Shown: in pieces, positions 4,887-32,588 of the stretch
Layout of the letters: each line of letters begins with the position of its first letter
How positions within the stretch are numbered: position 1 is the stretch's first letter
Program-made: the position numbers and the translations under genes
Notes under the pieces: model-generated
Databases searched by the model: none
What the model saw: the letters and a program-made list of their open reading frames with translations, nothing else
Told to the model about the DNA's origin: nothing
From: an uncultured virus (IMG/VR IMGVR_UViG_3300032304_000649)
Lineage: Duplodnaviria; Heunggongvirae; Uroviricota; Caudoviricetes
Length of the DNA: 64,000 nt
Strand: one strand, 5' to 3'
Virus record (IMG/VR): IMGVR_UViG_3300032304_000649

Positions 4887-4916
4887 ACTAATGCAAAATC
4901 TACTGCTTTTCCGCCC
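4887..4916 (-). promoter_or_regulatory. Phage late promoter motif GGGCG-N15-TTGCATTAGT
   Basis: Same motif and spacing as six plus-strand copies. Confidence 0.8.
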
Positions 4917-6402: not shown

Positions 6403-6708
6403 TCATAGTCCTAATTCCTTTTTGATAAACTCTACACCTTTTGAGAAATGATAACGCCAATGTTTTTCGGTTACATGTATTTCATTATAACTCTGTCCAT
6501 TTAAAAAAGCAAGCAAAACCTCCCGTTGTTTAAACGGCATGTTGTTTTCTATCAAATTACGGATGTCTTGGATGTCATCTGGTTCCCAGGGTAGCCAGCC
6601 TTCAATAAGTTGGGTGGATGTACCCTCCACGTCATCTTGCTCTAATGGGTCTGGATCTTCGTCTGATAGTCTTGGAGTAACTGCTTGTATTTTATGTTTT
6701 GTTATCAT
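6403..6708 (-). CDS. Stand-alone sigma70 region-4-like protein
   Basis: DIRNLIENNMPFKQREVLLAFLNGQSYNEI..HFSKGVEFIKKEL resembles the sigma r4 pattern LP.+QREV..L...G.SY.EI...SRA...L+. Confidence 0.55.
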   Translation of the reverse strand: MITKHKIQAVTPRLSDEDPDPLEQDDVEGTSTQLIEGWLPWEPDDIQDIRNLIENNMPFKQREVLLAFLNGQSYNEIHVTEKHWRYHFSKGVEFIKKELGL

Positions 6709-7814: not shown

Positions 7815-8110
7815 TTTACGTTTTCAAGTGCCTCTTCTACGGTCTTTGGTGTTTGGGTGGAGTGTTTAAACATAAACTCAAATACATCACGGATTGTGCT
7901 TTCTTCCGTAAGTTTCATTAGTTTGACGTCTTCCTCAGACACACCATAGATGTCGGACAAATAAACACCGACCATTAAAAAGTCTAGGCTATCAAGACCA
8001 GTGTCTTTAATTAATGTGTCGAGGCTTTCTATCTTTAATTCATCGGCACTCACAGGTCTTGCGACCTTTACGATGCCGTTCATAATCATTAGCAGTTCTT
8101 GGTCTGTCAT
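7811..8110 (-). CDS. Acyl carrier protein
   Basis: Acidic 99 aa with GLDSLD phosphopantetheine-Ser motif; coupled to the KS gene. Confidence 0.85.
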   Translation of the reverse strand: MTDQELLMIMNGIVKVARPVSADELKIESLDTLIKDTGLDSLDFLMVGVYLSDIYGVSEEDVKLMKLTEESTIRDVFEFMFKHSTQTPKTVEEALENVK

Positions 8111-9450: not shown

Positions 9451-9853
9451 GTCGGTTTCCTTTTGAGGCGTTTTCTTTTTTAGTTAACAAGGTTAGATTC
9501 CATGGAACGTGTAATCCACATACATCTTTTCCTTGCAACGGTTCAATATGTTCAACTTCATATAATTCCTCCATAAAAATTGTGGCTAGTTGGGCGCGGC
9601 GATACCATACTTCTATTTCCGGTTTTAAATGCAACTTGCCCCATTTTAACATGCGGTTTAATTTTGCAACACGATACCGACTACGTTTAGCATTTGCTTT
9701 GTCTCTATTATTTTTAGACCAGCTTGCTGAGTATTCCCGATCACAAAGTTTACAATACGTTTTTAATTCATCTTGTCTGTATTTGTCTTTATTAAATTCG
9801 CTATAGCTTTTTAACTGTTTGCATTTTGGGCATTGCTTGTTTAATAAAATCAT
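8963..9853 (-). CDS. HNH-type endonuclease with an N-terminal Zn ribbon; the C-terminal part overlaps the helicase
   Basis: CPKC..CKLC; EVEHIEPLQGKDVCGLHVPWNL..ENASKGNR. Confidence 0.75.
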   Translation of the reverse strand: MILLNKQCPKCKQLKSYSEFNKDKYRQDELKTYCKLCDREYSASWSKNNRDKANAKRSRYRVAKLNRMLKWGKLHLKPEIEVWYRRAQLATIFMEELYEVEHIEPLQGKDVCGLHVPWNLTLLTKKENASKGNRRAKENTTTPVSAGDHIPGAVGAELGSVSTPWTWEDSDDTNDYRGATQGENSYRSAKEGGGNSMGTGNTEMGTPTTPEGSQDTGHPESTVSSVEEFFERVRSQSRELDMVVGSTKDAIQQSDNRRVESLQRSFDEKIQELEETLKELRATYYSDRDSDTSRDG

Positions 9854-10103
9854 CTACGTCATCCTTGGATCTTAAAATGTGAACAGGAAAGCCTTGTTCG
9901 CCTAGTTGGTCAAAGACTATCTTTTGTCTTTCGCTTACTTTTCCTGTCGGTGTTTTCAGTTCCACTAGGAACACTTGCTGGTTCAGGAACACTATTCTGT
10001 CCGGCACTCCCGATATCGTGCTTAACCATTTCAGTGAGAGCCCGTTCAATTTTTTCACGGATTTGCTCAGATGCTGCTCGATGTCGCTTTCTAAAATTCT
10101 CAT
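9801..10103 (-). CDS. VRR-NUC domain nuclease
   Basis: ESDIEQHL..SGVPDRIV..VELKTPTGKVSERQ; likely start ATG 10103. Confidence 0.85.
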   Translation of the reverse strand: MRILESDIEQHLSKSVKKLNGLSLKWLSTISGVPDRIVFLNQQVFLVELKTPTGKVSERQKIVFDQLGEQGFPVHILRSKDDVDDFIKQAMPKMQTVKKL

Positions 10104-10509
10104 AGTTTTCTTGCTCCGTTGCGTATGCCGCAAACACTTGTTTAAACAAATACTCTGTAAAGTAGGCTCGGGTCTCATCACCAATCTTGGCTTCGTCTTC
10201 CCCAATATACTCAAACACATGGGTGACAGTGTGCACACACTCATGCACTATGACACCAATACGTTCAAGTGGGTCGTAGTCCTCCATGGCTTTAAGATCA
10301 AACACAATCGCCAACATGGCGTTTTGTGTGCCCTCTTGTTGGATGTAATGCGACTCTGCTACACCGACATCTAGGCTTGAATGTTTGGTTGTTATCTTAG
10401 AATGTTTTAGTGCCGCTTGAAATGCGTCATCCGAAAAACATACCTTTACCTTGGCTTCATAAAAACCGGTGGTTGCTATATAAAACGGCAATGCTTTTTT
10501 GTTTTTCAT
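9910..10509 (-). CDS. HExxH zincin-like hypothetical protein
   Basis: IVHECVH..DETRAY. Confidence 0.6.
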   Translation of the reverse strand: MKNKKALPFYIATTGFYEAKVKVCFSDDAFQAALKHSKITTKHSSLDVGVAESHYIQQEGTQNAMLAIVFDLKAMEDYDPLERIGVIVHECVHTVTHVFEYIGEDEAKIGDETRAYFTEYLFKQVFAAYATEQENYENFRKRHRAASEQIREKIERALTEMVKHDIGSAGQNSVPEPASVPSGTENTDRKSKRKTKDSL

Positions 10510-12229
10510 TTTATTCCGTGTGCCTTTTCTATTGCTCTGGCAAACGCAACAATGTCACCTTCCGTTTGCATTCTAATTCCCGTAATCTCTTGATCTGTAA
10601 GGGGTTTTGACTTGTAGATTCCGCATAAAAATGGCCTTGGCTCCGTGACTACGGCGTCCTCATAGCCAGGTTGGTATGGCGCCTCTGCTACATAGTTTGG
10701 TTTCATTTTTTCCTCATCATGTTTAATTATCCACTGTAACGCAAGAGTCAATGTGTTAAATGCTGGTGATTTTATTGACTCATTTTCCCAATAATAACTA
10801 GGCACATCGGATACTTGCCAAGTGTCCCCAACCCATTTAGCGGTTCTTTCATGGATTGTTTGTAAGTTCATTCTATTTCCTCATACCAGCCACGTACATA
10901 AAAAGCATCCCCAAAGTCTTTAACTAACTTCTCAGGGTAGCCGTTCTCAATTAGCCACTGCACAGTGTTGTCGACGTGCTCGGGTATCTCTTTAGGAAAT
11001 CCGTACAACCATCCTTTGGGTGGATCAATCATTTTAACTTTCATTTCTCACTCGCTTTCTTTAATCCTTCAGCATATCCAATCTCATACCCGCCTTGATG
11101 TGCCATAGCCTCGTGATGACTGCATTTTTCTAATTGGTTTTCCAACTCCGCTATGCGGTTTGCTTGCTGACGCAACATTCTAGGCACTCGATTATCACAC
11201 CCAACTGCTTGCAATACTCGATCTAGTTCATCTGCTAATTCGTATGCGTTCATTTCTCTTGTGCCTTTCTTAGTATTGCTCTAGCAAAGTCTTTAATTCC
11301 TTCTAATGCTTTGTCAGGATTGTTCAGTTGCCACAATTCAAAAGCGTAAGCAAACTCCTCTATTTCATCATCTGTTAGTGTCTTTGCTGGATGGGTGTAG
11401 AGTGGTATTTTTTCCATCTGCGCTATGGTTGGTGTATGCCATGTAGTAGGCTTTGCCCACTCTAGTTTGCGTTCTTCTACGTTGATGTACGCTACTGGTT
11501 CATTGTTCATTTTTAATCCCATGATGTTCTTCAACTGTTCTGACAAAATCACGCATGCTCCACATTTGGTTGGTCTTATTCATGTTGATAATCATTACGC
11601 GGATCTCTTCGTCGGTCATTGGTGTTCGTTTGACGGCGTCTTCGTACTCTTTCACTGTGTGGTACATACTAACTCCTTCCAATTTGTTTCTTCCGGCATG
11701 ATGTTGATCGTGGTGCCCTGCTCCTTTGCCTTGGCGATCAGGTTATTGAGCACCGATGCGCCGTACAGGTGTGAGCCATAATTATGTTTGTAGCACCGGT
11801 ACACAGACCCCGAGGCGCCGTGAAAGTCGTAGTATTGTTTCTCTTCATCTACGCCCACGACGCCACTGTTCATCTGCCACGAGTCTGATCCGGCGTACCC
11901 ACCATACCAGCAACCAAACACGCGGTAGAGATGCGTGTCGCCAGCAATTATCTCAACCATTACCCACTTGTCAGGTGTGTTCATAACCCAAACCTCCTCG
12001 ATGGTGTGCGTTTGCCAAATCTTACGTATATCTTTAATGCGCACAGACGTGCATACGTTTGGTTGCGCCACCCTTGCGCGGCTCTTCGGTACATCTGCAT
12101 ACGGGCGCGTTTGTAATGATTTGGTTTCCCATTTTTGCTAATAAACACAATGCGCCGTTGCCCTACTTTACCGAATATGCTGGTAAAACCGTTGCGCAAG
12201 ATGGTTTTCTTAAAACGAAAAGGTTTCAT
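10506..12229 (-). CDS. Cluster of small hypothetical genes (10506-10871, 11041-11253, 11250-11552, 11500-11682, 11652-11984, 11981-12229)
   Basis: Coupled short ORFs typical of phage middle regions, e.g. TPDKWV..WYGGYAGSDSWQMNSG. Confidence 0.55.
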
Positions 12230-12594
12230 CGTTTTCGTTTCTCAATAGTTACAAACACCGCTACCACGTCCTCTTCGTCACTTACGCTTACATGCGGGTA
12301 ATATTTGTTTTTCTTTACAAAGTCATACACCCAGCCATTGAGCGCAAAGTACGGGCGCCCGTTCTCATCATTTAACAACTGCACAAGATCCATGTTAGCA
12401 ATCGGACTGATGCCAGACCCAAGTGCTTTTAGAAACGCTTCTTTGGCGGCGAATCGAGTGGCTAAGTAGTCTGCTGGTTTACCTCTGCGCTCGTACTCTT
12501 TCTGTTCGTGCAAACCCAAAATGTTTAACGGCACTCGTAGGTTTTTAAACCTGTTTACCTTGACAATATCAACACCTACCCCTGCGATCATCAA
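12226..12594 (-). CDS. acpS: Holo-ACP synthase (4'-phosphopantetheinyl transferase)
   Basis: GVGVDIV, LATRFAAKEAFLKALG, GRPY, HVSVSD. Confidence 0.9.
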   Translation of the reverse strand: MMIAGVGVDIVKVNRFKNLRVPLNILGLHEQKEYERRGKPADYLATRFAAKEAFLKALGSGISPIANMDLVQLLNDENGRPYFALNGWVYDFVKKNKYYPHVSVSDEEDVVAVFVTIEKRKR

Positions 12595-14912
12595 AACACT
12601 CCTTCGTCTTCAATTATGTTTTGGTCAACATACTTTTGTGCCTTGGCACTTAACTTGATGCCATCGTATACATGTTTGCGCTGACCGCCTACCATCGCCT
12701 TTGTTACTGTAACGGCATGCTCTTGAGTCGCCGCTAAGAATCTGCGTTTAAACGACATCTCTGTACCAAATGGCAGGTTCTTTTTGGTTGCCCAATGTTT
12801 GAAACAAGCAAACACATGATCTTTTGGCACTGACGATGATGGATCAAATGTTAACACTTCCTCGGCAAATGCGCCGATTGGGTTGCCAGCCTCAGCCATC
12901 ACTTCGATTAAATCCTTGCCGTTCTCAGGTTGTATGAAGTGCCCGCCACGGTCTATTCTGCGTTGCAAGCCTTCCATCGCCCAATTAAAAATGCCTGACA
13001 GTTCGCTTGATAACTTGTGGGATAGATCAGTGTCCTCTTGGTTGTAAAAGGATTTGGTCATCTTCAATACAATCATTCGCCCTGTGAGTGCGTTTGAGTT
13101 TTCGGTTAATTGCAAGGTCTCGTTGGAATAGATTACGATTCGTGTGGGGAGGTATCCGTTCCATGATTCTTTGTTTTTCCTGTTGACCGTAATAGTGTCG
13201 CCTCCAACGATTCGTAGCAACTGAGAAACAACTGCAGAGCGATTCCGCTCAGGAGCACGAGCATCTGTAAAACTAGCAAGCAACTTGCCAAGCCAAGGTT
13301 GTAAGCCAAACGTATCACATAGTTCTCCTAGTTCTGGTGCGACTGTGTTGTGTTGTCCTAAGAGGGACACCAGCACCTTGTTGATTGTTCCCTTACCTGA
13401 ACGGCGGGGGCCGATGATGTTAAAAAACTTCTGCTGGCGGGTGTCGCCACTGAGGATGTAACCAAACATTTCTTGCAAGGCTTCTATCGACTGCGGGTCG
13501 GTTGTCCATACAGACTTTAAAAAGTTATCCCATATTGGACACTTAGCCGATGGGTCATACGCAAACGGCAACGAGTTCTGTGTAAAGAAACCCAATGAGT
13601 GCGGGATCAACACACGATCTTCGAGGTGAAACAGTCCGTTCTCCAAACTGATAAGTTTGGATGCTTCGGGTTTGTTTAAACGATAGGCATCTAACCAAAT
13701 TGGTGGTCGGGTGTTTGCGTGGTTGGGTAAATGCACGATGGACTTGATCGCATCCATACACGCTGACACCGATGCTGGCGATGGGTTGAACGGCACTAAC
13801 TCACCTTTCTTACCTGGCTTTTTGCATTTGTCCAGCAGTTTGTATAAGTCTGACCGAATGGTTGCCTCTTCCATGATCTCGTAGTGTGTCCTTGCATGCA
13901 CATAAAAGTCATCCGAGTAATGGACTAAGCGGTAGCCTTCCTCTGTGACATACTGGTTTTCGAGAAAGGTACGGGCATGGTTCATAGCACCTTGGTCGAG
14001 AATGATCTCGCCCGATGCTAAGGCTTCTGCCCGCTCCATTTGGTTGATTTTAAATATAAGGCTTCGTAGGGTTGCACCTGATCCTTTAAAGGTTGTCCAC
14101 TTCTTATCACATGCGTTGGGTGTGTAGTTAGGCACACTGCCATCCCCATACGACCATCTATCCCACAACTCCAAGGCTTCCATGTCGCCGTTGAACTGGT
14201 GGTGTAGCGCAAATCCAACAGACAGCCAGTCTGTGTAACCTGACGATGGGTCTAGTTTGGCTAAGATCTCAGTTTCGACCTTATGGATGTCATATCCTTC
14301 GACAGGGGGTGTGTAGTCCGCAAACGAGTCCCCTGTACGCCTTATTTCGCGCTCAGGGACGATATCGGTTAGGTCTTGGGGGGTGGGTGGCACCTTGCCA
14401 CTAATCTCGTGTCCTGTGACCGTAAAATAGCGTCCACGGGGGTAGCACTCCAATCCCTTGTCGTGGTCAACATGGGCTGAGTGCATGTCGGCTCTGGTGA
14501 ATATTTTGACCCCTGTGCCAGATGGGGAGACTTCCATATAGCCATCGACCTTGTCTGCAATTTGCTGCAGTGCAGCATCTGTGAAAACCCCCTGTGTGTG
14601 GTCGTAGCAGTCATCCAAATCGATACCGACCAAGTTGTCGTGGTCTGAGAACACAAAGCCCACTCCATCAAATCGGTTGGGGTTGTCTTCGTAGGCATGT
14701 TGGACAGATAGGAAGTCTGCCCAAGTGTCAGGGTTGGTTGACGATGCGGACTGTCCATTTGCCTGTGTGGGTATTTTAGACCAGCGTTTGGTAGTCTCAT
14801 CGCCTATTTCTACATATCTCCATAGCACCCAACGAGGGATGCGTTTTAATTCCATGGGGATGTTGGTGAATTGTACGGGTAGGGTTTGTGGTTTAGTGTT
14901 CATAATTTTCAT
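12591..14912 (-). CDS. Primase-polymerase / D5-like SF3 helicase
   Basis: N-terminal prim-pol (GIDLDDC, EVSPSGTG, YFTVTG), PriCT-like middle, GPRRSGKGT Walker A. Confidence 0.9.
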   Translation of the reverse strand: MKIMNTKPQTLPVQFTNIPMELKRIPRWVLWRYVEIGDETTKRWSKIPTQANGQSASSTNPDTWADFLSVQHAYEDNPNRFDGVGFVFSDHDNLVGIDLDDCYDHTQGVFTDAALQQIADKVDGYMEVSPSGTGVKIFTRADMHSAHVDHDKGLECYPRGRYFTVTGHEISGKVPPTPQDLTDIVPEREIRRTGDSFADYTPPVEGYDIHKVETEILAKLDPSSGYTDWLSVGFALHHQFNGDMEALELWDRWSYGDGSVPNYTPNACDKKWTTFKGSGATLRSLIFKINQMERAEALASGEIILDQGAMNHARTFLENQYVTEEGYRLVHYSDDFYVHARTHYEIMEEATIRSDLYKLLDKCKKPGKKGELVPFNPSPASVSACMDAIKSIVHLPNHANTRPPIWLDAYRLNKPEASKLISLENGLFHLEDRVLIPHSLGFFTQNSLPFAYDPSAKCPIWDNFLKSVWTTDPQSIEALQEMFGYILSGDTRQQKFFNIIGPRRSGKGTINKVLVSLLGQHNTVAPELGELCDTFGLQPWLGKLLASFTDARAPERNRSAVVSQLLRIVGGDTITVNRKNKESWNGYLPTRIVIYSNETLQLTENSNALTGRMIVLKMTKSFYNQEDTDLSHKLSSELSGIFNWAMEGLQRRIDRGGHFIQPENGKDLIEVMAEAGNPIGAFAEEVLTFDPSSSVPKDHVFACFKHWATKKNLPFGTEMSFKRRFLAATQEHAVTVTKAMVGGQRKHVYDGIKLSAKAQKYVDQNIIEDEGVF

Positions 14913-14918
14913 GTGTCT

Positions 14919-14947
14919 ATACTAATGCAAACTTTGGGTATTGTCAA
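14919..14947 (-). promoter_or_regulatory. Sigma70-type promoter TTGACA-N17-TAGTAT with TTGCATTAGT core, upstream of the primase
   Basis: Minus strand TTGACAatacccaaagtTTGCATTAGTAT. Confidence 0.75.
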
Positions 14948-15238
14948 GAAGTTGGACAAGTCGGACAATTTGGGCATAAAGTTGGACACTTTTTTATTCC
15001 ATGAAATCAACAACTTGGCTCTAAAATTGTCCGACTTGTCCGACTTGTCCAACTTCTTTGCACAATTTACCATACCTCTATTAAATTTAAATTTTTTTTC
15101 TGTGAGTAAAAAAGTGAAATAAAGTCGGACAAGTCGGACAAGTCGGACAATTTTTCGATTAACTCCTTGATTCTGCTCAATAAAAAATTGTCCAACTTTC
15201 GTGGTTTTTGAAAATGGAAGTTGGACAAGTCGGACAAT
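14947..15238. repeat. Iteron array A (AAGTYGGAC units in both orientations around an AT-rich core); probable replication origin
   Basis: Tandem AAGTCGGAC/AAGTTGGAC and inverted GTCCGACTT units next to the primase gene. Confidence 0.85.
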
Positions 15239-15395
15239 CATAACTTTTGGTTATATAGCGCGTAAATAACATGCGCAAATAGATATAAAAGAACTGCAAG
15301 CAAAGCCCTGTTGACCCATCTTTGGGTTTTTTCCTCGATGGGGTCAAAATCAATCATTTGCTTTCGATGTGGTTTACCCATGTCATCACCGACTT

Positions 15396-15946
15396 TCATT
15401 TAAGAATCTCGTAGCCTTTTCTTTCAACCATGATGTAAGCCCACCGCCTGAAAGCCTCCCTGTTTTTAGCAGTTTGGGGGTCGGTTTCATCCCAAAGGGC
15501 ATCGATTATATGCTCACCTGTGCCATCGTTGAACTCAATTTTTATCATGTTGCCGTCTTTATCGTAAACATCGACTGGTATGGCTTTCATTCTTCCTCCT
15601 TTAATTTAGAAAAACTATCGGTTACACCTCGTTCCCGTTCATCCCAAGAATCTTGTGTGCCGTAGTCACCTCGGCTCATCCGCATTCTTTCTTCGTGCCT
15701 AAATCGTGGCTCAACCTCAAGCCATGCCAAGAATGCTTCTTTGTATTCAACCCAATCATCGTTTTGGACAAACATAGGATGGTTCATACCTGCAATATCA
15801 ACACAAGCCAAATAATCCCTTGATGGAATCCATTTTCTTGGTTTTGTCCTACAACCAATACCCATCTTATTACGAGCAGTTATATAGCGGTCATAGGCTC
15901 TTTGCTGTTCAAGGTTAAGTTCAATCATCGGTGCTTTCCTCTGCAT
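15396..15946 (-). CDS. Two hypothetical genes (15396-15590, 15587-15946)
   Basis: Coupled ORFs. Confidence 0.55.
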
Positions 15947-16493
15947 ATTTTTCTTGTTTAAGATTATTTAAAGAAATAGGTTCTTTGTTGATGTGACCTT
16001 GCAGTTGGTGTATTTTATTCTCAGACACCCCCATAATTGTCGCCAGCTCAGATATTTTAGGTTCTCGCCCTAATATTTGGGTCAAGTTTCGTTTGTTGTA
16101 GTTAAGTTTTTTGATTTGTTCCATGATGTTTATCGGTAATCGAATGAGGTTAGCCGTATTGTCTAAGTCCCTACGCACCCCTTTTTCAATAAAAGACCTA
16201 GCGTATGTGGCAAACCTAGCATTGTTCTTGGGTTGCCATCGTTTGGCTGCGATCAGTAGGGCTTTGTTACCCATCGCCAATATGTCCTCAACAGGCACTT
16301 TGCCATGATGCCATGCGGTCATTTTACGCACCACATACACAACAAAACGCAAGTTATGGGTCACTAACTTCTCCAAGGCAAGATCATCTCCCTTGGCTAT
16401 CAGTTTGGCTAGTCGGTGTTCCTCTGCCACTTCCAATGGTTCAACGCCATAAAGCGACTGTAAGTAGTCACTTAAAATGTCATTTTCTTTCAC
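15921..16493 (-). CDS. Phage sigma70-family factor with regions 1.2-2-3 and no region 4
   Basis: DYLQSL..PLE..EEHRLA..LVTHNLRFVV..RFATYA..IRLPIN..LGREP..ELA..PISLN, then stop; likely GTG start 16493. Confidence 0.85.
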   Translation of the reverse strand: MKENDILSDYLQSLYGVEPLEVAEEHRLAKLIAKGDDLALEKLVTHNLRFVVYVVRKMTAWHHGKVPVEDILAMGNKALLIAAKRWQPKNNARFATYARSFIEKGVRRDLDNTANLIRLPINIMEQIKKLNYNKRNLTQILGREPKISELATIMGVSENKIHQLQGHINKEPISLNNLKQEKYAEESTDD

Positions 16494-16835
16494 TCTTCTC
16501 GCTTTCAAAGAAATATTGGAGAAGATTAGGGAACATACAAATGCCACCCGCTAAAAGCATAAAAATTAATCCCCATGTAATGCCTCCGCCATGATCGATT
16601 GCAACCATCGCAACTAATATCAATAGAAAACCAATAAGTTTCATACAAATTCTCCTGGAAAAAAAGTCAAATTTTTGGACAAAATCAAAACGGGATAAGT
16701 CGCTTTAGGCGAATGAAAAAAAAATTAAGCCTTCCCCTCCCCTGTTTAAACACTTTGCTCTCCAATTATACCACAACTGACCCTGTTTAAACAAGGTGCA
16801 TTTATCGAGTCGTTTAAACATGGGGTCTAGGTTTT

Positions 16836-17265
16836 TTAAAAAGGGCTTTCACCCAAGGTTGCCATGCAGTATTGGTATGGGTCTTGGGGCTTGGGTAGGG
16901 CTATGAGGCGAGTTCCCTCGGTTAGATAGGGCTTTGCCTCTTGTTTACTAGCGAACTTCCTCAGAGTTTCACCGAACTCATCAACTAACATGAATTTATA
17001 TACACTTTGTTTAAACATGGTATTCATTCAAAAATTTTTTGGAGATGTAATAGCAATCTTCACCTAATTTATTTCGTAGGTGTTCACCGACCCCATCAAG
17101 GGGCTTATTGTATTCGCAAAGGTCTAATATGCTTATTGCCTCGTTGATCCATGCGGGTAATTCCGCAAGATCAACAGTATAAACTATGTCTTTGCGGTTG
17201 CGTAGCCAATCAAGATCGGTGATCTTGTAGCGATCACCGACCCTATCTACTCTTAGCCAACTCAT
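16836..17265 (-). CDS. Two small early hypothetical genes (16836-17027, 17011-17265)
   Basis: Coupled ORFs. Confidence 0.55.
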
Positions 17266-18059
17266 TCAAATACGCTATAAAAATTTGGTTTTCCTTTGAC
17301 ACCAAGGTCATCATGCACTTCACTACCAACATCTAATAGATCAAGTATAACCAATTTATCTAATATTGTCTGAGGTAATTCAGCCTTTGTAGCGACTGTT
17401 TTGGGTTCGTCTAAATGAGAATCCCCTTGATATTTTTGGTAGGTTATGTCTGATCGTTTAAACCATACATGGTAAAATACAGGATCGTAATTTTTTTGTT
17501 GAATATATTTTTCATGGTTGAGTTCTAAATAATCCATAGCCTCTTTTAATTCAAGACTTTGTGGCTTATAACCCATGTCTTTTAGTTTAAGAAAATCGGC
17601 ATACATACTTTCGGGGACACCATGAGTATTGCTTGACACTTCATAATTCATCTGATGTTGTTTTTGCCTAATGTATTGCCCCATAGCCCATAAATGGTTT
17701 GACTGCATAAACTCACCCATTGTGGGAAAACACAACATCTGAGGTGCTTGTTTAACAATCGATTTCATGTGAATAGATGTCTTAGCACTATCGGGTGCTG
17801 ATCCTACCCACCTACCACTTTTAAAACAACTACTTACATACCACTTTTTTTCATTACTCAAATAACCAATAGCCCCTATTCGTATGTCGGGTTCATTAGC
17901 CATGTAAACCTCAAAATAATTGCGGTTATCATCACCATGCCAATTTAATTGTTTTGGTATAAATGAATAATTAGGATTGCGTTTAAACAACTCATCACGC
18001 AAGGCAACAACTTCGTCAAGTATCTTTATATTTGTAGTCATATTAGTTCCAATTAGCAT
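17262..18059 (-). CDS. Hypothetical early protein
   Basis: 265-aa ORF in operon. Confidence 0.7.
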   Translation of the reverse strand: MLIGTNMTTNIKILDEVVALRDELFKRNPNYSFIPKQLNWHGDDNRNYFEVYMANEPDIRIGAIGYLSNEKKWYVSSCFKSGRWVGSAPDSAKTSIHMKSIVKQAPQMLCFPTMGEFMQSNHLWAMGQYIRQKQHQMNYEVSSNTHGVPESMYADFLKLKDMGYKPQSLELKEAMDYLELNHEKYIQQKNYDPVFYHVWFKRSDITYQKYQGDSHLDEPKTVATKAELPQTILDKLVILDLLDVGSEVHDDLGVKGKPNFYSVFE

Positions 18060-18978
18060 ATTTATCGTAGGACAACTTACCCAATTCCACCTCAGTCAAT
18101 TTGAATGGTCTTACCAATCGATAGAGATCGTTTTGAATCCTTTTCGCAAGTAAATGAGTTTTGTATTCTACAACTTGCTTATACTCATCATTAACACGCA
18201 CATAAGACGAACTTCTGATCCTGTCTTTGTAGTTTTCCAATACCCCTAGCCAACTTTCACTTGGGTCTTGTTTAAACAGTTCCTCTTTTGGTATATTCGT
18301 GAGTGGATTACCACTTGACCATTTTTCAGTTTCAATAATGTTGATCATGGCTTTAGCGTAGTCTAAGAATGGCTTGATGTTTTGATTAGCCACCTTGGTC
18401 TGATCTTTATCTAAAGATCGCACATATTCCCTGTGAACTTGGTAAGGTCTAAAGTATGAATCACCTTTTCTTTTAATAAAAACCATATCACCCTTAGCCA
18501 TTGTGTAGTATTTTGTTAGTTCCTCGATTGTGTGGGCGATATACTTTTTACCTCTGTGGTTATGCACCCCAAATTCTTTTGGTAATTTGTAGTGATAAAA
18601 ATAAAGCATAGAGGGTGAGTTTAACCATTGTGGATTCATTGATCCATAACTGCCTGTTGGAGTGTGGATAATAATAGTTTCAGTATCGTAGCACATTCTA
18701 AATGTGATTGCCCTACAATGGTTGTCATGCTCTTTTTTGTCTTTGCTAACATACGCATAAGAATTGCAAGTTAAGTAATATTCCTCATCACTCACCTTAA
18801 TAACTCTATCCTGTGTTCGACCCCTTTCACCGACAGGGCGAATGTTTAAACACGCCCGCTTACCCCTGATCGGTTTTGTGTTTTCGTATAGTTCCTTGAC
18901 CTTATCAAAGGTTAGGTATTTGTTAGGGCTTTCACTCTGCACTTGATGTGATGACCTCATGCTATTCCAATGTCCCAT
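18043..18978 (-). CDS. Hypothetical early protein
   Basis: 311-aa ORF with AAAGG RBS. Confidence 0.7.
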   Translation of the reverse strand: MGHWNSMRSSHQVQSESPNKYLTFDKVKELYENTKPIRGKRACLNIRPVGERGRTQDRVIKVSDEEYYLTCNSYAYVSKDKKEHDNHCRAITFRMCYDTETIIIHTPTGSYGSMNPQWLNSPSMLYFYHYKLPKEFGVHNHRGKKYIAHTIEELTKYYTMAKGDMVFIKRKGDSYFRPYQVHREYVRSLDKDQTKVANQNIKPFLDYAKAMINIIETEKWSSGNPLTNIPKEELFKQDPSESWLGVLENYKDRIRSSSYVRVNDEYKQVVEYKTHLLAKRIQNDLYRLVRPFKLTEVELGKLSYDKYANWN

Positions 18979-19092
18979 TTTATTTGCCTTTCAATGCTTG
19001 TTTATAAGAATAAAACTCTAAAAATTTGCTGACTAATTGCGGGTGAAAAAGATATAGCCAATCCCACAATTCCTCGTTCATTTTTTCCTGAT

Positions 19093-20295
19093 TCATAAAT
19101 CCCCCATTTCAATATGAATTGTTGATCCCACATTGGGATTAGCATCTTTGTTATCAAGTATGCACCATAATACAGGGCAACTCCACTCACCCCATGAACA
19201 TACATAACCATCTGTAAACACAATGGCACACTCAGGCACGATATTGTTTTTGGTCATGTATTTGCCAATACAATCGGGATCAGTTCCACCACCACCTTTA
19301 GGCTTTGTGGATTGTGTCATTTTGTCGAACTCGTTTAAACCATATACCTCATGCCCCGCAACTCTTGTATCCCAATAAAGTAAATCGACCAATTCGGGGT
19401 TTACATTTTCCATCATGTTGGCAACTTCAGATATAAAACGATTCAATATGTAATCACTAATCGACCCTGATGTATCAATAGCGACCACAACTCGACCCAT
19501 TGTTTCACTTACGCTAGAGGGCATATAAATATCGTGTTGTAGCCATCTGCGGTTGGGTTTAGCCCATGTGCTATCGTCTTTGCCTTTGCATACTGCACTA
19601 ACGAACTCAGCAAGGGCGGTTTTCCAATCGACCTTGGCACTCATAAGATCAGTAAATGCTCTGTTTTGATTCCCGCCTACTTTACCCGCTAAGATTGCAC
19701 CTTGTCTAATGGCTTGATCAATCTCTTTGGCTAATTCTTTTTTCTCTTGCTCGGTTAGTTTTTCTGCGTTTTCCCAATCGTGGTGATCCATTGGTTTAAA
19801 CACACCACCCTCACCATTACCCTCGCCACCACCCCCACCACCTTGGTAGTCAGGCAACAATGCGAACACATCTGCGGTGCTTAAACCTCTAAACTTTTCG
19901 TCATATAACCCGCCCTCGGGCAACACGCAAAATGGTTTGCCATGATTGTCGAGATTTTGTTTACCCTCATCTACGATCTCAATGTTAATCACAAAATCAC
20001 AAGCCACATTGGTCTTGATTGGGTTGATCTTGGCTAAGTGTTTCCATGTATCTAAATGGCGATACATCTTGTGCTTTGCCTCATGCAAAATTAGCCCTCT
20101 TAGTTCGTTGTCGGTTAGCGAATCTATGAACTTGCGACCATACCAAATATCCCGCCCATTAGTTCTAGCGGTTGGCTCGTTGTCATCAATCTTGGTATCG
20201 CCCACCATAATAAGGTTTGTATATGCCACAAACCCACCATGCCTCATAATCTCAATGTGTGCTTTTTCAATGCGTTGTTCTGCGGTTAGTGCCAT
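19093..20295 (-). CDS. DUF2201-type metallopeptidase + vWA domain protein
   Basis: TARTNG..ILHEAKH (HExxH); VAIDTSGSI (MIDAS), GGGGT, FTDGY. Confidence 0.88.
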   Translation of the reverse strand: MALTAEQRIEKAHIEIMRHGGFVAYTNLIMVGDTKIDDNEPTARTNGRDIWYGRKFIDSLTDNELRGLILHEAKHKMYRHLDTWKHLAKINPIKTNVACDFVINIEIVDEGKQNLDNHGKPFCVLPEGGLYDEKFRGLSTADVFALLPDYQGGGGGGEGNGEGGVFKPMDHHDWENAEKLTEQEKKELAKEIDQAIRQGAILAGKVGGNQNRAFTDLMSAKVDWKTALAEFVSAVCKGKDDSTWAKPNRRWLQHDIYMPSSVSETMGRVVVAIDTSGSISDYILNRFISEVANMMENVNPELVDLLYWDTRVAGHEVYGLNEFDKMTQSTKPKGGGGTDPDCIGKYMTKNNIVPECAIVFTDGYVCSWGEWSCPVLWCILDNKDANPNVGSTIHIEMGDL

Positions 20296-22100: not shown

Positions 22101-24056
22101 TCATTGTTCATGTTTAAACGCACCCCCTCTTAGTATGTCTAAATAAATGTCATTGATCTTAAACACAATGTTGTCGATCACTTGCTTACCATATCTGTCG
22201 CACATCTTGTAATAAGTTTTATAGTCATCGTAATCTTTACCAATGTCGGCTATGGTTTGCACGATCTCATAAAACTGTGGCTCTGTGAGTGTCGGTCTAT
22301 GTTGGTCAATAATCACGATCTAACCCCTCGATCAGTTCATTTATGCGGGTGTGGTAAAGTTCGCCCACCCTTTCCAATTCCTCAGAATCAGCCCCATAAA
22401 TGTAAAGGGTTTCGTCTAGTATTGCCTGTGCCTCTTTCACATCATCACACACCCGCAAATCGTCTAGGATTTTATTAATTGGGTTAGCCATGTTTAAACA
22501 CTCCCTATAAGTTCGTTGTCCCAATAGCGTTTAACTGTGTAGCCTAATAATTCAATTTGGGTAGCCATTAAACTATTGACCCCCATATAAATTAAATTGC
22601 CACTTTCACAAAAAACCTCAAATCTAAACTTAGTCATGTTTAAACACTCCCCTATTCGGTTTCGGTTTCGAGTTCACTCGGATCAGTCGTATAGTCGCAA
22701 CTGTCGAGCCAATCATTAAACCCACATTGGTAAGCAATCGGGTCTAGTTCCTTTAACACTCTGCTAGGGTCAAACTCTATCCCCGCTATGTTTATGGGTG
22801 AGTAGAGTTCATCTAGCATCTCGTCATAAAGTTCATACGCTTTTGATTCGTCAATATATTCAATCATAATCTGCCTCTTTGGTTGTAATGGTTTACTGCC
22901 CCCGCTTGTATAGGCGGGTCTAGGTTGGTTTAGAAAATAGCCCCTTTCATTGGTTGGTTAGTCTGCTATGTCATCTCTTACAATAAAGCCAAAAGCAAAG
23001 GAAGTAAAGATTAGCCCCACTACGCATATGGCTATTGCTTTTTCTAGCACCACATAAAGACATAACACGAATATGGCGGTGAGTATGACTGTGGTGATGA
23101 TCAATGGTAAATTACGCATTTTTAGCCCTTTATTGTTTAAGTATTTCACAAATAAAACCCTGTTTTTCCATCTGATTAATTAAAATCTCGATCTCATGGT
23201 TTAGCATGGTGTCAAGGTTGAAAACCTTACTCACTTTTAAATCGTGCCTACTGCAAACCAATTCATATCCAAACATTTTTAATTGCCCCCTATGTTTAAA
23301 CATGGCGGGGTTTCCCCCGCCCTGTGGTTGATTAAATAAAACCTGTCAATTCGTCAAAGAATACCTGTGGCTTTTCTGTGGTTTTCTCTGTTGCGTGTCG
23401 ATCCGCTAACCATTGGTTAATGTGTCTGCTTGTGGTCTTAGACCACTTTTGAGATGTCCTGTAATAGTTCCCTGTATTCATCTCATAAAACGCAACAGGG
23501 GTTTTATAACTAAACAATAAATCCCCCATGGCTAGGGATAAAACATTTATATTTTTACTGATTGGATTAAGTTCGATTTTCATAATTTTAGTTCCTATGG
23601 TTAGTGTTTAAACATGGCGGGGGATAGCCCCGCCCTGTGGTTAGATTGTCGGTTTACCGAGTGCCTCGGCTAATTGGTTATAAACTGCGGTTTTACTGCC
23701 CTTGATCCCAAATTGTGCCTTGATGATCGAATAGGCGGTTTTGCCTCGGCTCATCTTTAGCCCTTTAATCTCCAATTTGAGCATGGATAGCAAGGTTAGA
23801 TTCCTGAAATGGTTTATTTGTTCGGGTGTGTTTAAAATCATGGTTTCATTCTCCTGTGGTGTGTTTAAACATTACTCAATAAATCATGCTCTACGCAATA
23901 ATCCCAAAATGCTAGGTCTAGTGCCTCTAAAATTCGGCTCTCTATTGGTAGGTCTGTTAAATCCTGAACATAAATAAATTTGTCCTGAGTTTGTGCGTAT
24001 TCTTTGGCATTGTCTAGGTTTAAAAATTGCTCTTTGTAGTAGGCTAAGGTTTTCAT
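22101..24056 (-). CDS. Array of small early genes (22101-22316, 22306-22491, 22652-22867, 22958-23149, 23332-23583, 23641-23841, 23865-24056)
   Basis: 60-85-aa ORFs with strong RBS, several separated by repeated hairpin modules. Confidence 0.6.
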
Positions 24057-24119
24057 GGTTTCGTTTTCCTATTGGTTGGGGTGTTTAAACATGGCGGGGG
24101 TTTGCCCCGCCCTGTGGTT
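23293..24119. repeat. Three ~38-bp intergenic repeats TGTTTAAACATGGCGGGG-loop-CCCCGCCCTGTGGTT (23293, 23605, 24082)
   Basis: Near-identical copies, each directly after a minus-strand stop codon. Confidence 0.9.
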
Positions 24120-24727
24120 TATTCCTCTGTGTCCTCATCATCTAAAGCAAAATCATGGCTCATCTCACCATGACCTAGAGGACAACGGGGGGTAGCCAAT
24201 TTGAGCCATTTACTACTTATCCGCATGGTGTAGCCACAATGGACACAATCACACTTATGTAAGCGGGTAGATTGCTTTTTATAGGTAGCGTTTAGGGTAG
24301 CGTGTGGATATTCGCCCTCATACTTAACCCATTGTAGAATCGCCTGTTTTAAACCCTCGGTTGCATTGGTTGAGGTAGGTTTGCCCTCTAAACCTACGGC
24401 ATAGGCACAATCAGCAAAAACCTTGTTATGACCCTCTTTATTGCCTACTGTGGCGTGGCAAAGTTCGTGAATCAAAACATCAATTACCCGCACCGAATCG
24501 GACAAACTCGGCACAATCACAATTTCAGTAGTGTTATCGCTAGACATTGAGGCGGGATAGCACTCACCCAATGTAAAACGCTTTTGGTGTTTTTTGGTAT
24601 GAATCCCGCCACTTGATTGTGAACATGAAAGCCTAATATTGGCGGGGATTGTGTAGCCCTTACTAGCAAAGTGAGGGCGGAGATATTTATTAGTAATGGT
24701 GTTTAGCCATTGTTCTCTATTGTTCAT
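24119..24727 (-). CDS. SprT-like metalloprotease, probable first early gene
   Basis: LIHELCHA..GHNKVF; C-terminal CxxC and C. Confidence 0.75.
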   Translation of the reverse strand: MNNREQWLNTITNKYLRPHFASKGYTIPANIRLSCSQSSGGIHTKKHQKRFTLGECYPASMSSDNTTEIVIVPSLSDSVRVIDVLIHELCHATVGNKEGHNKVFADCAYAVGLEGKPTSTNATEGLKQAILQWVKYEGEYPHATLNATYKKQSTRLHKCDCVHCGYTMRISSKWLKLATPRCPLGHGEMSHDFALDDEDTEE

Positions 24728-25181
24728 AATGTCTATTCCTTATAGGTTAGTGTTTAGTTAGTGTGATTGTTATTAACCTGTTTTTACTACTGCCTTTTCT
24801 CACCCTTGAACTTAATCCTAGTGTTTTCCCGCTAACCACAATCACACTATTAATACTAAACATATGGCATAGAAACGCAAGGTTTTTATTCGGTTTTATT
24901 CCACAATATGAGAAAAATTACAGTTGGCGGTTATAACTTTTAGTTATGGTTTCGGCTCTCTTTATACTTAGGGTTTACCCTTACAAAATCGAGATCGTGG
25001 GGCGGGTGATACCTACCCCTCATCTCACAATTAAACTCAATGGCGGGGCTATAAAGGGGCTTGCTGAGGCTTTTCATATTGTGAAATAGTGGGTAATCAC
25101 TAACTCGGCAAAATGCCGTTTTCTCGCCTCACCGCCACTTTGCCCCTCGCACCCGCATGGTTATTTATCTATATGCCTCAA

Positions 25182-25344
25182 TGCGTATATACGCACCTAC
25201 GCATATTGCACCGCAACATGATGCACCATATTGGTGCATTGTTTAAACGGGGCGGGCTGGTTATATGCGTATGTGCGTATATACGCAAGCACGCATATTG
25301 CACCGCAACATCATGCACCATATTGGTGCATTGTTTAAACGGGG
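25182..25344. repeat. Two 71-bp direct repeats (92-bp period) built from palindromes
   Basis: TGCGTATATACGCA..ACGCATATTGCACCGCAACAT.ATGCACCATATTGGTGCATTGTTTAAACGGGG at 25182 and 25274. Confidence 0.9.
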
Positions 25345-25534
25345 GTTATGTTGCACCGCACCAATGTTGCACCGCACCAATTAGGGGTTGCGTTTCACAA
25401 TGTGAAATCGCATCTCACAATGCGGAATAGGGGGCTTTTCCTAATTGTCGATACCCTTTTTTTAGACCCCCACCCCCCACGGCCCGGGGGCCCCACAGAA
25501 CGCAAGTTTGTATATTTTTGTAATTTTTTAAAAA

Positions 25535-25813
25535 AGAAGTTGGACAAGTCGGACAATTTTGAAAGAAGTTGGACAATTTTTTATTTAGCAAAATCATAGA
25601 CTTAATCGAAAAATTGTCCGACTTGTCCGACTTGTCCGACTTTATTTCACTTTTTTACTCACTTTAAAAAAAAGATAAATTTAATTGGTAGGGTAAAAGT
25701 TGCAAAGAAGTTGGACAAGTCGGACAAGTTGGACAATTTTTGAGTTAAGTATTTGATTGGATTAGAAAAAAAATTGTCCAACTTCCCAAATTTTTTTAAA
25801 TAAAGTCGGACAA
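25535..25813. repeat. Iteron array B, inverted copy of array A
   Basis: 25602-25662 is the exact reverse complement of 15102-15162; same 9-mer units. Confidence 0.9.
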
Positions 25814-25832
25814 TTTTTTATTTTTTAAAATG

Positions 25833-25862
25833 GGACGCAATGCCTAATTTTTTTGCATTAGT
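25833..25862 (+). promoter_or_regulatory. Late promoter variant GGACG-N15-TTGCATTAGT
   Basis: Same spacing as the other copies; heads the packaging operon. Confidence 0.75.
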
Positions 25863-25868
25863 TAGAAT

Positions 25869-26174
25869 ATGAACGATTACGCATACCAAATCCAAGGTGC
25901 GCTCGAAAGCGCATCGGGGAAGTTTCGTGGCCTCAGAGTGCTGGTATGTGATCTTCACAATTTTGAAAGCGTAGATATACCGGTCGAAGTGTTTGATAGA
26001 GAAACCGTAAAGTTTCTTGAGTATCGCCTAAAGTTAACCGAAACTATGGATATCAACCGCTTACCAATACCAATCCAAAACAAAATTCGAGCGCCGTTAG
26101 GGCGATGGCTGGACTTCTGGGTCCTCGAAAACTTCTATGGCAATACTAGCAAACCAAAAAGTACTAACCCTTGA
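25869..26174 (+). CDS. Hypothetical protein
   Basis: 101-aa ORF directly after the promoter. Confidence 0.65.
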   Translation: MNDYAYQIQGALESASGKFRGLRVLVCDLHNFESVDIPVEVFDRETVKFLEYRLKLTETMDINRLPIPIQNKIRAPLGRWLDFWVLENFYGNTSKPKSTNP

Positions 26175-27129
26175 CTATTGGAAGCCAGCAAGCAAACTGC
26201 GAGTTGGCGATTATATTTTTAACAAAGATGGACAAATTGTCCAGGTTAAATTAATCCAAGAGTACCGCGCCCAAACCTGCTATGAGGTGTTGTTTAACGA
26301 CTACCTTACTGCCGCTGGGGACGATAAGCTAGGATTTTTGGTAGAAACTCCAAAATACCGCCAAAGAATCTGTGAGTACCAGGGCAAGAAGAAGTTTAGG
26401 CGCCCATTAAAGTTTGTATCCGTGGATAAATTGGTAGATACCAACTTAAAAAACCACGCAAACAGGTTAATCTACTCAGTCCCAACCACAAAACCCTTAT
26501 CTCTTCCCAGGCAAGACCTGCCGGTAGAGCCATTTATCTTTGGATTTTGGTTTTTTAACCGACGAGCTAACCGAAGTATGGCAGCTCCCCGGGGCACGTT
26601 TAAGTTTGTGGAGCAAAAATTCAAAGACGCGGGCTACAAACTGGTAATTGGCAAGAAAATTAACACCGGCGAGCGTGAATTTGTGGTAAGTCCCAGTATT
26701 GAATCACAATTAGCGCCAAACATACCCGCAAAAATACCCGAAAACTACCTATTAGCCTCGGCAGAGCAACGAACCGAACTGTTGTGTGGTATACTGTATG
26801 CAAAATCAAGACAATATTCAAAAACAAAAGATCAATTTAGGTTTACGTCAATTAATTACGGGCTTATGTTACAGGTTCAGGGTCTTGTCGAATCGCTTGG
26901 CCATAGAACTAAGGTACAGTTTGATGACACTTACAGATATTACACGATTAGTTTTAAAAGCCGCACAAAGTTGGTTGAAAATCAGGTCTCGCCGCCCATA
27001 AAGGTGCACCAGGCGCGCAGATACATCACCAAAATAACACCGATTGCCGCGCAGATGTGCGTGCATATTGAGACAACCGGACAGGACAACAGCTTTCTCG
27101 TAGGAGAAGGGTTTATTTCATGCCATTAA
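26137..27129 (+). CDS. Free-standing intein-like protein (Hint + degenerate LAGLIDADG)
   Basis: AILANQKVLTLDYWK..LRVGDYIF..DG; PVEPFIFGFW; IPENYLLASAEQRTELLCGI; RYITKI..FLVGEGFISCH-stop. Confidence 0.8.
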   Translation: MAILANQKVLTLDYWKPASKLRVGDYIFNKDGQIVQVKLIQEYRAQTCYEVLFNDYLTAAGDDKLGFLVETPKYRQRICEYQGKKKFRRPLKFVSVDKLVDTNLKNHANRLIYSVPTTKPLSLPRQDLPVEPFIFGFWFFNRRANRSMAAPRGTFKFVEQKFKDAGYKLVIGKKINTGEREFVVSPSIESQLAPNIPAKIPENYLLASAEQRTELLCGILYAKSRQYSKTKDQFRFTSINYGLMLQVQGLVESLGHRTKVQFDDTYRYYTISFKSRTKLVENQVSPPIKVHQARRYITKITPIAAQMCVHIETTGQDNSFLVGEGFISCH

Positions 27130-28565
27130 CAGACAAACAAGAACTTATACTAAAAAAGTTCGCACAAAACAACAAACACTGGCCCAAGCAGCAGCTAGAA
27201 GCTGCCATTTGGCAGGTGCGGTGGCATTTACAAGCCTTAGCGCACCAGAGGGAGCCAGAAGATGGTGAGTATGATACGTTTCTTATGTTGGCTGGTCGTG
27301 GATCGGGGAAGACGCACACTGCCAGCCATTGGATTGGCATCCGTGCTTGGCGTTATGACAACACCCGCTGGCTCGTCACCGCTCCCACCTCAAACGATAT
27401 ACGTGCAACTTGTTTCGAGGGGGACTCTGGACTTCTCAATATCATTCCCCCGTCACTCATACGAGACTACAACAAGTCCCTCTTTGAAATTACCCTTACA
27501 AACGGGTCTCTTATCCAAGGAATCCCAGCCTCCGAGCCAGAACGGTATCGTGGTAAGCAATATCACGGCGCCTGGTTCGACGAGCTGTGTGCGTTTGATT
27601 ACATTGACGATGCCTACGATGGCGTACAGTTTACCTTACGTCTACGGGACCCACGCATCCCTCGAGTGCAGCAGATTATTACCACCACTCCCAAGCCAAA
27701 AGAATTAATTGTAGATCTTAACGAAGGGAAAATTGGAGGCGACGTGTATGTGTCCAACGCCTCGTCCTATGACAACCGAGCCAACCTATCAGAAACGTTC
27801 TTCAAACAGCTTGAGACTTACGACGGCACTGATATTGGCCGACAAGAGATCTATGGTGAGATCCTTGACCCGGAGCAGTCGGGTATCATCAAGCGCAAAC
27901 AGTTCCGCCTGTGGCCGGCGAACAAACCCACTCCGACGTTGGAGTATGTTATTGCGTCGTATGATCCGGCGACTTCTGAAAAGACAATGAACGACCCAAC
28001 CGCCTGCACCATTTGGGGCGTGTTTGAACAACTAGACGCCGGCACGGCAATCATACTGCTAGACTCTTGGGACGAGCACCTGTCCTACCCAGAGCTGCGC
28101 AGAAAAGTAATTGACGACTTCAAGGAAGTGGTATACGGTGCGGACAACGACTTTGGCAAAGGCCGAAAAGCTGACCTAATCCTAATGGAAGACAAGTCGG
28201 CGGGTATTTCCCTAATACAAGAACTCCAAGGTGCCGGTGTGCCGGTCAGGGGGTATAACCCTGGCAGAGCGGACAAGGTGCAGCGTCTTAACATTGTTGC
28301 GCCCCTGGTAGCCAAAGGTAAAGTTTGGATACCAGAAGACAACAAACAAAAAGGGGAATACGCAAGCTGGGCAAAACGGTTCTTGCGTCAGGTTTGTTCG
28401 TTCCCAGAAGCGGGCGGGCATGATGACTACGTGGACTCATTGTCTCAGGCGTTGCGTGTGTTGCGTGATTCAGGATGGATCCAACTTGACCCATTACCAG
28501 CAAGGGATTATAGTTATGCCGATGAGGATTACTCCAAGAAGTTTGTTAATCCGTACGCCCAGTAG
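27120..28565 (+). CDS. terL: Terminase large subunit
   Basis: LAGRGSGKT, AWFDEL, TTTPKP, ASYDPA, MEDKSAG, HDDYVDSLSQA. Confidence 0.95.
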   Translation: MPLTDKQELILKKFAQNNKHWPKQQLEAAIWQVRWHLQALAHQREPEDGEYDTFLMLAGRGSGKTHTASHWIGIRAWRYDNTRWLVTAPTSNDIRATCFEGDSGLLNIIPPSLIRDYNKSLFEITLTNGSLIQGIPASEPERYRGKQYHGAWFDELCAFDYIDDAYDGVQFTLRLRDPRIPRVQQIITTTPKPKELIVDLNEGKIGGDVYVSNASSYDNRANLSETFFKQLETYDGTDIGRQEIYGEILDPEQSGIIKRKQFRLWPANKPTPTLEYVIASYDPATSEKTMNDPTACTIWGVFEQLDAGTAIILLDSWDEHLSYPELRRKVIDDFKEVVYGADNDFGKGRKADLILMEDKSAGISLIQELQGAGVPVRGYNPGRADKVQRLNIVAPLVAKGKVWIPEDNKQKGEYASWAKRFLRQVCSFPEAGGHDDYVDSLSQALRVLRDSGWIQLDPLPARDYSYADEDYSKKFVNPYAQ

Positions 28566-32147: not shown

Positions 32148-32588
32148 ATGGCATTTGATTTATCACAAAAAGAAGACCCAGATCTTCGCTCGGAAGCGGA
32201 ATGCTTTCCGGACATTGATCCAGGTATTGAAGTAGCCGGAGACCGTGTTTTAGTGCAGTTACGACGGGAGAAGGACAGAAGCAAGGGCGGAATCATTTTA
32301 GTTGATGAAACCCGGCAAACGTTACGTTTCAATGAGACTGTAGCTAAAGTACGCCAGATTGGCCCACTAGCATATAAGTCGCCAGATACCCTAGAGCCTT
32401 GGATTGAAGGCCCTTGGTGCAAAGAAGGCGATTTGGTTAGAACCATCAAGTACGGCGGTGACCGTTTTGTTGTTAATCCGGATGATGAAGGCGCCCCCGT
32501 GGTGTTTATTACCATCCAAGCACGTGAAATCATCTCACGCATTAAGTCGTTTGACCATGCGCAGAAGATGAAAGCGTTTGTAGACTAA
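32148..32588 (+). CDS. GroES-like co-chaperonin
   Basis: GDRVLVQ..SKGGIIL..KVRQIGP..CKEGDLV..KYGG. Confidence 0.85.
   Translation: MAFDLSQKEDPDLRSEAECFPDIDPGIEVAGDRVLVQLRREKDRSKGGIILVDETRQTLRFNETVAKVRQIGPLAYKSPDTLEPWIEGPWCKEGDLVRTIKYGGDRFVVNPDDEGAPVVFITIQAREIISRIKSFDHAQKMKAFVD

Follow-up and report, generated by a model that had tools for sequence, protein, structure and literature searches.

Host-operator-like boxes in a fixed slot beside the putative packaging terminus of a freshwater tailed phage and its relatives

The array and its genomic setting

The DNA analysed here, a stretch of 64,000 nucleotides (the window), represents most of the ~64-kb genome of a podovirus-like freshwater tailed phage. 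Leftward from 24727 it carries replication and early genes, and rightward from 25869 the genes for terminase, portal, capsid, SU10-type adaptor and tail. The gap that separates the first early gene from the terminase genes is filled by an array of boxes, most of them palindromic, which ends immediately left of a conserved GC box. The array is thus located at the early-gene end of the genome, as proposed in an earlier note on this DNA. Its DNA was present as DNA contigs in all 20 runs listed, 12 of which are labelled freshwater metagenome. The features of the locus are as follows (strand given where one applies).

24119..24727, minus strand: SprT-like first early gene (phrog_6361), transcribed away from the array
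24853..24880, minus strand: candidate sigma-70 early promoter, 7/12 consensus bases, picked by eye and below the scan threshold
24898..24914: IclR-type box that adjoins the candidate early promoter and could be regulatory
24933..24947: 15-bp dyad with an echo at 15240 (one mismatch)
24970..24981: 12-bp Burkholderiales intergenic dyad
25071..25087: IclR-type box
25146..25158, plus strand: motif X, conserved and non-palindromic; left border of the variable slot and putative left end of a terminal repeat
25170..25344, plus strand: tandem duplication of a 92-bp unit that carries one ArsR-type and one PmeI-site palindrome together with a PhaR-type and an NtrC box
25182..25195: putative ArsR-type operator, second copy at 25274-25287
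25222..25238: perfect NtrC-type box, second copy at 25314-25330
25349..25379, plus strand: two PhaR-type boxes in tandem, more copies near 25206 and 25298
25392..25428: two IclR-type boxes in tandem, the second occupying a fixed slot at -75
25430..25456, plus strand: conserved G-run, ~20 variable bases and C-run; right border of the array, aligned in 49 relatives
25468..25500, plus strand: GC-rich stretch and GC box (from 25487); putative packaging terminus
25527..25862, plus strand: 9-bp repeat array on the terminase side of the terminus, with an IHF-type site at 25746 and a conserved late-promoter-like word at 25852
25869..26174, plus strand: conserved small ORF preceding the terminase genes, used as anchor for collecting relatives
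26137..28565, plus strand: terminase large subunit, two ORFs (26137-27129 and 27120-28565)

All motifs listed in the earlier note were recovered at their coordinates and exceeded chance expectation. The 17-bp NtrC-type dyad is present at 25222 and 25314 and nowhere else in the 64 kb, even when three mismatches are allowed. The 10-bp PhaR-type word was found at 25206, 25298, 25351 and 25367, the 14-bp palindrome in two copies (25182, 25274) and the IclR-type dyad at 24898, 25071, 25392 and 25412 (exact only at 25393), with one more loose match at 12205. When dyad centres with 5-bp arms were counted, the region 24895-25430 held 17 of them, compared with 6.8 ± 2.9 in 200 dinucleotide shuffles (maximum 16), and the densest 536-bp bin of the window, which starts at 25193, held 24. 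A single tandem duplication (25170-25252 and 25262-25344, 90% identical) accounts for both copies of the NtrC box and of the 14-bp palindrome and for two of the four PhaR words, and these copies are therefore not independent. Good SlmA-binding sequences (SBS), Fur boxes and CIRCE boxes are absent from the window's array, which holds a degenerate SBS copy only.

Database searches with the region gave little. Blastn with 23300-27100 and with three arrays against 50,697 named phages returned nothing useful, so that no named phage resembles this DNA at the nucleotide level. The nearest named terminases, those of Caulobacter phage RW and MW202545 (42%, 54%), come from genomes with other layouts in which the array is absent. 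An Rfam search of the stretch had no match, and for the ORFs overlapping the array (25113-25430 and shorter ones) no PHROG or Pfam family was found in a scan that covered the 105-codon ORF. Promoters predicted by a promoter and terminator scan were at chance level (7 vs 8.4), and a search of 13.3-30.2 kb that tolerated one mismatch gave no sigma-54 promoter. In 21 of 49 relatives (see below) a leftward sigma-70 promoter (at least 9/12) lies at -510 to -690 relative to the GC box; the window's candidate, which the scan did not detect, lies at about -620.

Several other elements of the window were recorded. The 9-bp repeat array and its late-promoter-like word have an inverted duplicate at 14921-15215, before the primase gene, and the repeat unit varies among relatives whose terminases are 86-95% identical, as origin iterons do when their binding protein changes. 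The 8-bp PmeI-site palindrome (819-25340) is concentrated in the first 25.4 kb, with 31 copies there (0.6 expected) and a single one in the remaining 38.6 kb (0.8 expected). Many of them lie over start codons, three surround a promoter-like site (16744-16812), and the palindrome is present in the arrays of 13/49 relatives and rare in host-like genomes. It was rejected as a host box, the 10-bp form having 0-2 copies per genome vs 1-4 for the control, and is possibly a phage repressor or stoperator site that marks the early region. The ORF 26137-27129 is a separate 330-codon frame preceding terL with a weak terminase-profile match, and a TerS-like gene (3738-4127) lies in the replication region, far from terL. 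Host-like genes encode a ketoacyl synthase with an adjacent small ORF, AcpS, GroES and a sigma-70-family factor (6705-8110, 12226-12594, 32148-32588, 15921-16547). A DUF2815 RNA of Rfam (2036-2096) precedes the gene of an ssDNA-binding protein. Three 39-bp repeats with a GC-rich stem-loop (23292-23330, 23604-23642, 24081-24119) separate the first early genes, and contigs from other runs diverge at them, which suggests cassette exchange.

A fixed slot with changing boxes

To compare related phages, we collected 461 IMG/VR stretches that encode a relative of the terminase and kept 80. Altogether, 377 viral loci were examined; the anchor ORF was present in 152, of which 112 covered the whole 550 bp to the left of the GC box and 49 remained as distinct, loci being left out when they were too short, had no GC box match or were redundant. 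The zones total 26,950 bases. Six motifs were fixed in advance, with preset consensus sequences. Here, we found 84 NtrC boxes in 34/49 relatives (shuffle mean 0.10), 51 PhaR boxes in 24/49 (0.20), 18 Fur boxes in 12/49 (0.05), 10 CIRCE boxes in 10/49 (0) and 14 sigma-54 boxes in 8/49 (0.05). The sixth motif, the IHF-type site, was not found on the array side and occurred 51 times in 41/49 relatives on the terminase side (shuffle 1.25). In 107.8 kb of terminase-side coding DNA there was no NtrC, PhaR, Fur, CIRCE or SBS match and there were two sigma-54 matches; 70.6 kb of early-gene DNA held none of these six. Five further patterns were taken from the phage DNA itself, which renders their shuffle tests circular: the IclR-type (30 in 18/49), the SBS-type (65 in 28/49), the 12-bp dyad (17 in 15/49), a REP-like word (12 in 9/49) and the ArsR-type palindrome (4 in 2/49). 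REP-like words inside arrays (L011, L058, L341 and others) might help to reshuffle the array.

The slot of about 300 bp can hardly be aligned among the 49 relatives and has been refilled with near-perfect host-type operators in shifting mixtures; Fur, CIRCE, sigma-54 and SlmA-type sites occupy the same slot in relatives. Array identity to the window was 0.57 (median of 47; shuffled baseline 0.52), while terL DNA reached 0.79, and these values indicate that boxes are retained as a class and not as a sequence. As to conservation of motifs and spacers in related phages, a question raised by the earlier note, the class of box and its place are kept; the sequence and the set of boxes are not. The boxes are confined between motif X (found 24 times in the 49 zones, at a median of -348 relative to the GC box) and the G-run/C-run pair (-58 to -33). 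A fixed slot at -75 to -80 is filled in 29/49 relatives by NtrC (14), IclR-type (8) or SBS (7) boxes, which belong to regulators of unrelated processes; no recognised box was seen there in the other 20. Perfect NtrC boxes make up 57 of the 84 in the relatives' arrays, and no perfect NtrC site was found in the 18 bacterial genomes searched.

Contig depths suggest a genome end at the right border of the array. In run X1, from which the window may itself derive, depth was 105.6 up to 25250, 187.9 for 25223-25342, 137.1 for 25315-25631 and 106.3 from 25602, which corresponds to 1.8x and 1.3x for the array contigs relative to the flanks. The 31-mers of the 187.9-depth contig are unique in the window. 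These depths come from assembled contigs and the terminus signal from this one run; run X3 gave about 2.4x in one bin, and X2 and X5 were confounded by strains. From the depths, the doubled part was computed to end at ~25430-25455, or further right if depth tapers, and this end coincides with the conserved border of G-run, C-run and GC box. A short direct terminal repeat of ~300-340 bp, at about 25146-25487, is likely on this evidence, with its right end putatively at about 25430-25490; if a third copy of the 92-bp unit had collapsed in the assembly, the 187.9 contig would likewise be doubled, and such an extra copy or GC bias could give part of the signal. Near the GC box, contigs of relatives ended at scattered positions with no sharp peak, and a contig break at +32/+62 in one sample was not taken as terminus evidence. 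The layout resembles that of the Kuravirus phiEco32 (NC_010324), which also has leftward early genes and the terminase on the other side, and, as a further parallel, the window encodes an SU10-type adaptor and a phage sigma factor. phiEco32 has a verified 193-bp terminal repeat that ends in a base run similar to the GC-box border of the window; unlike the window's array, its repeat holds none of the tested boxes. In T7- and lambda-type phages the early-gene end enters the cell first, and the same order is assumed for this phage.

Host counterparts and occurrence in other phages

Counterparts of the boxes were sought in bacterial genomes, among them five host-like ones (G046, G065, G081, G097, G111) of ~2 Mb and 43-46% GC from the family of Pandoraea, whose profile we take to be Polynucleobacter-like. 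NtrC-type boxes with one mismatch were present in three of the five, two of them ~190 bp before glnA, in line with the NtrC enhancer consensus that had been recognised in the window's two perfect dyads. Boxes similar to the PhaR-like TGC-N3-GCA words precede 11 of the 12 phasin loci shown, near the start. The IclR-family-like boxes fit the group 1 consensus given in PMC8222616, and counterparts lie before aceA and an IclR-family gene; genome-wide counts in the host-like genomes were 3-9 vs 2-4 for the control. The 14-bp palindrome was present in 2/41 genomes and once directly before an ArsR-family gene (L624). This context does not support the LysR-type reading for the 14-bp palindrome in the earlier note. 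Fur-type boxes (x3) were found in 5/5 host-like genomes (control 0), and CIRCE in 31/31 genomes with one copy before groES. The 12-bp dyad is intergenic in Betaproteobacteria (24 among the 80 genome matches listed) and has one copy per genome in the five host-like genomes, three of which also had a control match. The REP-like word was present in 16/41 genomes, usually in two inverted copies next to a gene for an IS200-like transposase.

A TetR-like label for one dyad was dropped, since this dyad contains the SlmA-binding sequence described in PMC3020112. The slmA gene was found in 5/5 host-like genomes. SBS-like counts in host genomes (4-11) were not above the reversed control (6-9); the 29 matches in four single-contig genomes leave 0.59-1.44 Mb, in the middle of these chromosomes, free, many being orthologous, with counts likewise not above control. 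The first SBS-type pattern matched 7 of 121 Burkholderiaceae genomes at two mismatches, no more than its control. Host-box searches in one genus (8 genomes) gave few matches, and a DNA search of window positions 1-20000 against 101 genomes gave nine short matches, seven of them in acpS, too weak to name a host. Taken together, host-context matches exist for seven box types, and the counterparts before glnA, phasins, aceA and an IclR-family gene agree with the earlier view that the boxes are of host operator type. Judged by these sequence matches, the host would belong to the Burkholderiales.

Box arrays also recur beside unrelated terminases. The NtrC pattern was found at no fewer than 120 IMG/VR loci (at least 120), its reversed control at 57 loci in all. 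Among the matches listed, 80 NtrC loci had full flanks; at 36 of them at least two more boxes lay within 350 bp, and 34 had a terminase match (25 of the window's clade). None of the 57 control loci had that many additional boxes and two had a terminase match, a control that is undercounted because the terL query set was built from the array loci themselves. A perfect 20-bp SBS was present at 40 IMG/VR loci, several of which are near duplicates. At 31 of these, compared with two of the 57 control loci, terL was found, always with the boxes 176-1858 bp upstream, and in 20 of the 31 the last SBS box ends no more than 9 bp from a G or C run. The terminases fall into at least six groups under 45% identity, and many phages carry 3-6 SBS per array. 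Three further loci (L725:1850-2500, L737:2900-3300, L743:1-500) show sigma-54 or SBS box arrays with no terL match in the fetched flank.

Arrays were found in 0 of the 14 named phages examined (T7, SP6, phiKMV, LUZ24, phiEco32, JG068, RSB1, P26059B, RW, DU_RP_II, RpY1, DSL-LC04, DSL-LC05, HTVC027P), P26059B being a weak negative because its record was not opened at the terminus. The array-less phages include the close terminase relatives DSL-LC05 (71%) and DSL-LC04 (79%). The array therefore appears to be dispensable in many lineages. Narrow searches of the open-access literature found no prior report of such arrays; their absence from print is not established by this.

Possible roles of the array and comparison with known systems

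The reading we favour, tentatively and at slightly less than even chances, is that the array recruits host proteins to the end of the genome and that their coat shields or anchors the DNA that enters first. The earlier note had named this as one of three options; binding and entry order are presumed here. The array would lie at the last-packaged tip of the genome, which would be the first part to enter the cell, and host proteins already in the cytoplasm would bind the near-perfect operators as the tip arrives: NtrC, PhaR and IclR- and ArsR-type repressors for the window, and Fur, HrcA, sigma-54 holoenzyme or SlmA for relatives. Such a bulky coat may hinder end-loading nucleases or end sensors and may stop the tip from slipping back, until RNA polymerase gets to the early promoter, ~600 bp behind the tip, and phage proteins are made. 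If the identity of the bound protein matters little, boxes could be swapped freely while their place is kept. The interchangeable binders, near-perfect sites, promoter distance and fixed place at the terminus suggest that end occupancy is selected and not regulatory logic. Against a protective coat, RecBCD is able to evict single bound proteins, and the sequence picture would be much the same if the array served titration or packaging.

Titration, the main rival and itself somewhat unlikely, may also add to an end-coating effect. Here, hundreds of replicated arrays would soak up low-copy host regulators and thereby derepress iron uptake (Fur), chaperones (HrcA), phasins (PhaR) and the glyoxylate shunt (IclR-type), and SlmA on phage SBS would block FtsZ rings and cell division. 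Tandem SBS on a multicopy plasmid indeed cause a lethal division block with SlmA, according to PMC3573117; slmA is encoded by all five host-like genomes, many phages have 3-6 SBS per array, and perfect boxes would outcompete host sites. The CIRCE variant of the phages is similar to the copy at host groES, and a GroES gene is present in the window. However, titration requires no fixed place, yet the boxes lie directly against the G/C run and the other genome parts examined have none. Moreover, the box set varies between close relatives, the window lacks a good SBS, Fur or CIRCE box, and soaking up NtrC would lower nitrogen assimilation. The fixed spacing to the G-run would also suit an aid to packaging, in which host proteins on the boxes would slow the terminase down or mark the position of its cut, or help to copy the terminal repeat, comparable to the help that IHF gives on the other side of lambda cos, and the terminase-side IHF-type sites in 41/49 relatives suggest that host proteins are used at the terminus. 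We consider this role unlikely, since such a scaffold usually requires one specific protein and not interchangeable ones, box copy number ranges from 0 to 7 or more, and close relatives package without the array.

That host regulators tune early transcription to the nitrogen and carbon state, as the earlier note had considered, fits poorly and strikes us as very unlikely, because a sigma-54 promoter is missing from the window region, the box set shifts and most boxes lie 200-500 bp from the promoter slot. Repressor-type boxes are this far from the sigma-70 promoter slot, SBS and REP-like sites are not transcription signals, and regulon identity is not kept. Nevertheless, no more than about 100 bp separate the boxes at 24898, 24933 and 24970 from the candidate early promoter, IclR-type boxes and the 12-bp dyad are found near the promoter slot in some relatives, and NtrC is able to act at a distance. 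Still less credence is due to the view that the boxes are sites of phage proteins or neutral repeats that merely resemble host boxes. One 92-bp duplication supplies part of the window's count, the five phage-derived patterns have circular shuffle tests, and SBS-like words are not enriched over the reversed control in host genomes; but the six preset consensus motifs are enriched 40-fold or more over shuffles, the same SBS word stands beside unrelated terminases, and seven box types have host-context matches.

If the array does recruit host proteins to the genome end, many unrelated tailed phages may have independently evolved a DNA-only cloak, in which perfect operators next to the packaging cut would draw any abundant host DNA-binding proteins onto the first DNA to enter and protect it from end-directed nucleases or sensors. 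Replicating genomes with SlmA sites would also stop host division with no protein of their own; this wider claim is plausible at best and we would not put it as high as an even chance. Survival and uptake of a linear phage genome before any phage protein is made are an open question for most phages. A cis-acting operator array would then be a new class of counter-defence that is invisible to gene-centred screens, the boxes would name host regulators and thus provide a host-prediction signal for uncultured phages, and SBS arrays would offer a possible protein-free block of cell division.

Known systems share single aspects of this picture. At lambda cos, of which cosQ is also part, the host protein IHF has a site, so that a host DNA-binding protein is found at a packaging terminus as proposed here, where IHF-type sites lie on the terminase side; unlike lambda cos, the locus carries many unrelated and interchangeable host operators in variable number on the early-gene side. 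Sites of host regulators are known from phage promoters, for instance in LexA- or CtrA-controlled phage genes, and these are likewise host transcription-factor boxes on phage DNA. In such cases one regulator acts at a promoter, whereas the array holds up to eight kinds of boxes, is promoter-distant and does not conserve the regulator. The end-protection proteins T4 gp2, Mu Gam and lambda Gam deal with the same problem of the incoming end that is proposed for the array, and the injection-stop region of T5, with its DnaA boxes, likewise has host boxes in a non-coding repeat region. However, gp2 and Gam are phage-encoded proteins and T5 has one internal stop signal, while the array would be DNA-only and work with host proteins from the moment of entry. 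Nucleoid occlusion by SlmA relies on the SBS, for which PMC3020112 gives a 12-bp consensus. The division block by SlmA and SBS, as described in PMC3020112 and PMC3573117, shares with the arrays the same word, tandem copies and a multicopy replicon; in these sources it is known from chromosomes and engineered plasmids, whereas here the word is found in phages, with a fixed position next to the putative terminus and among mixed operators. In our analysis, the known relatives of the idea differ by relying on one factor or on a phage protein.
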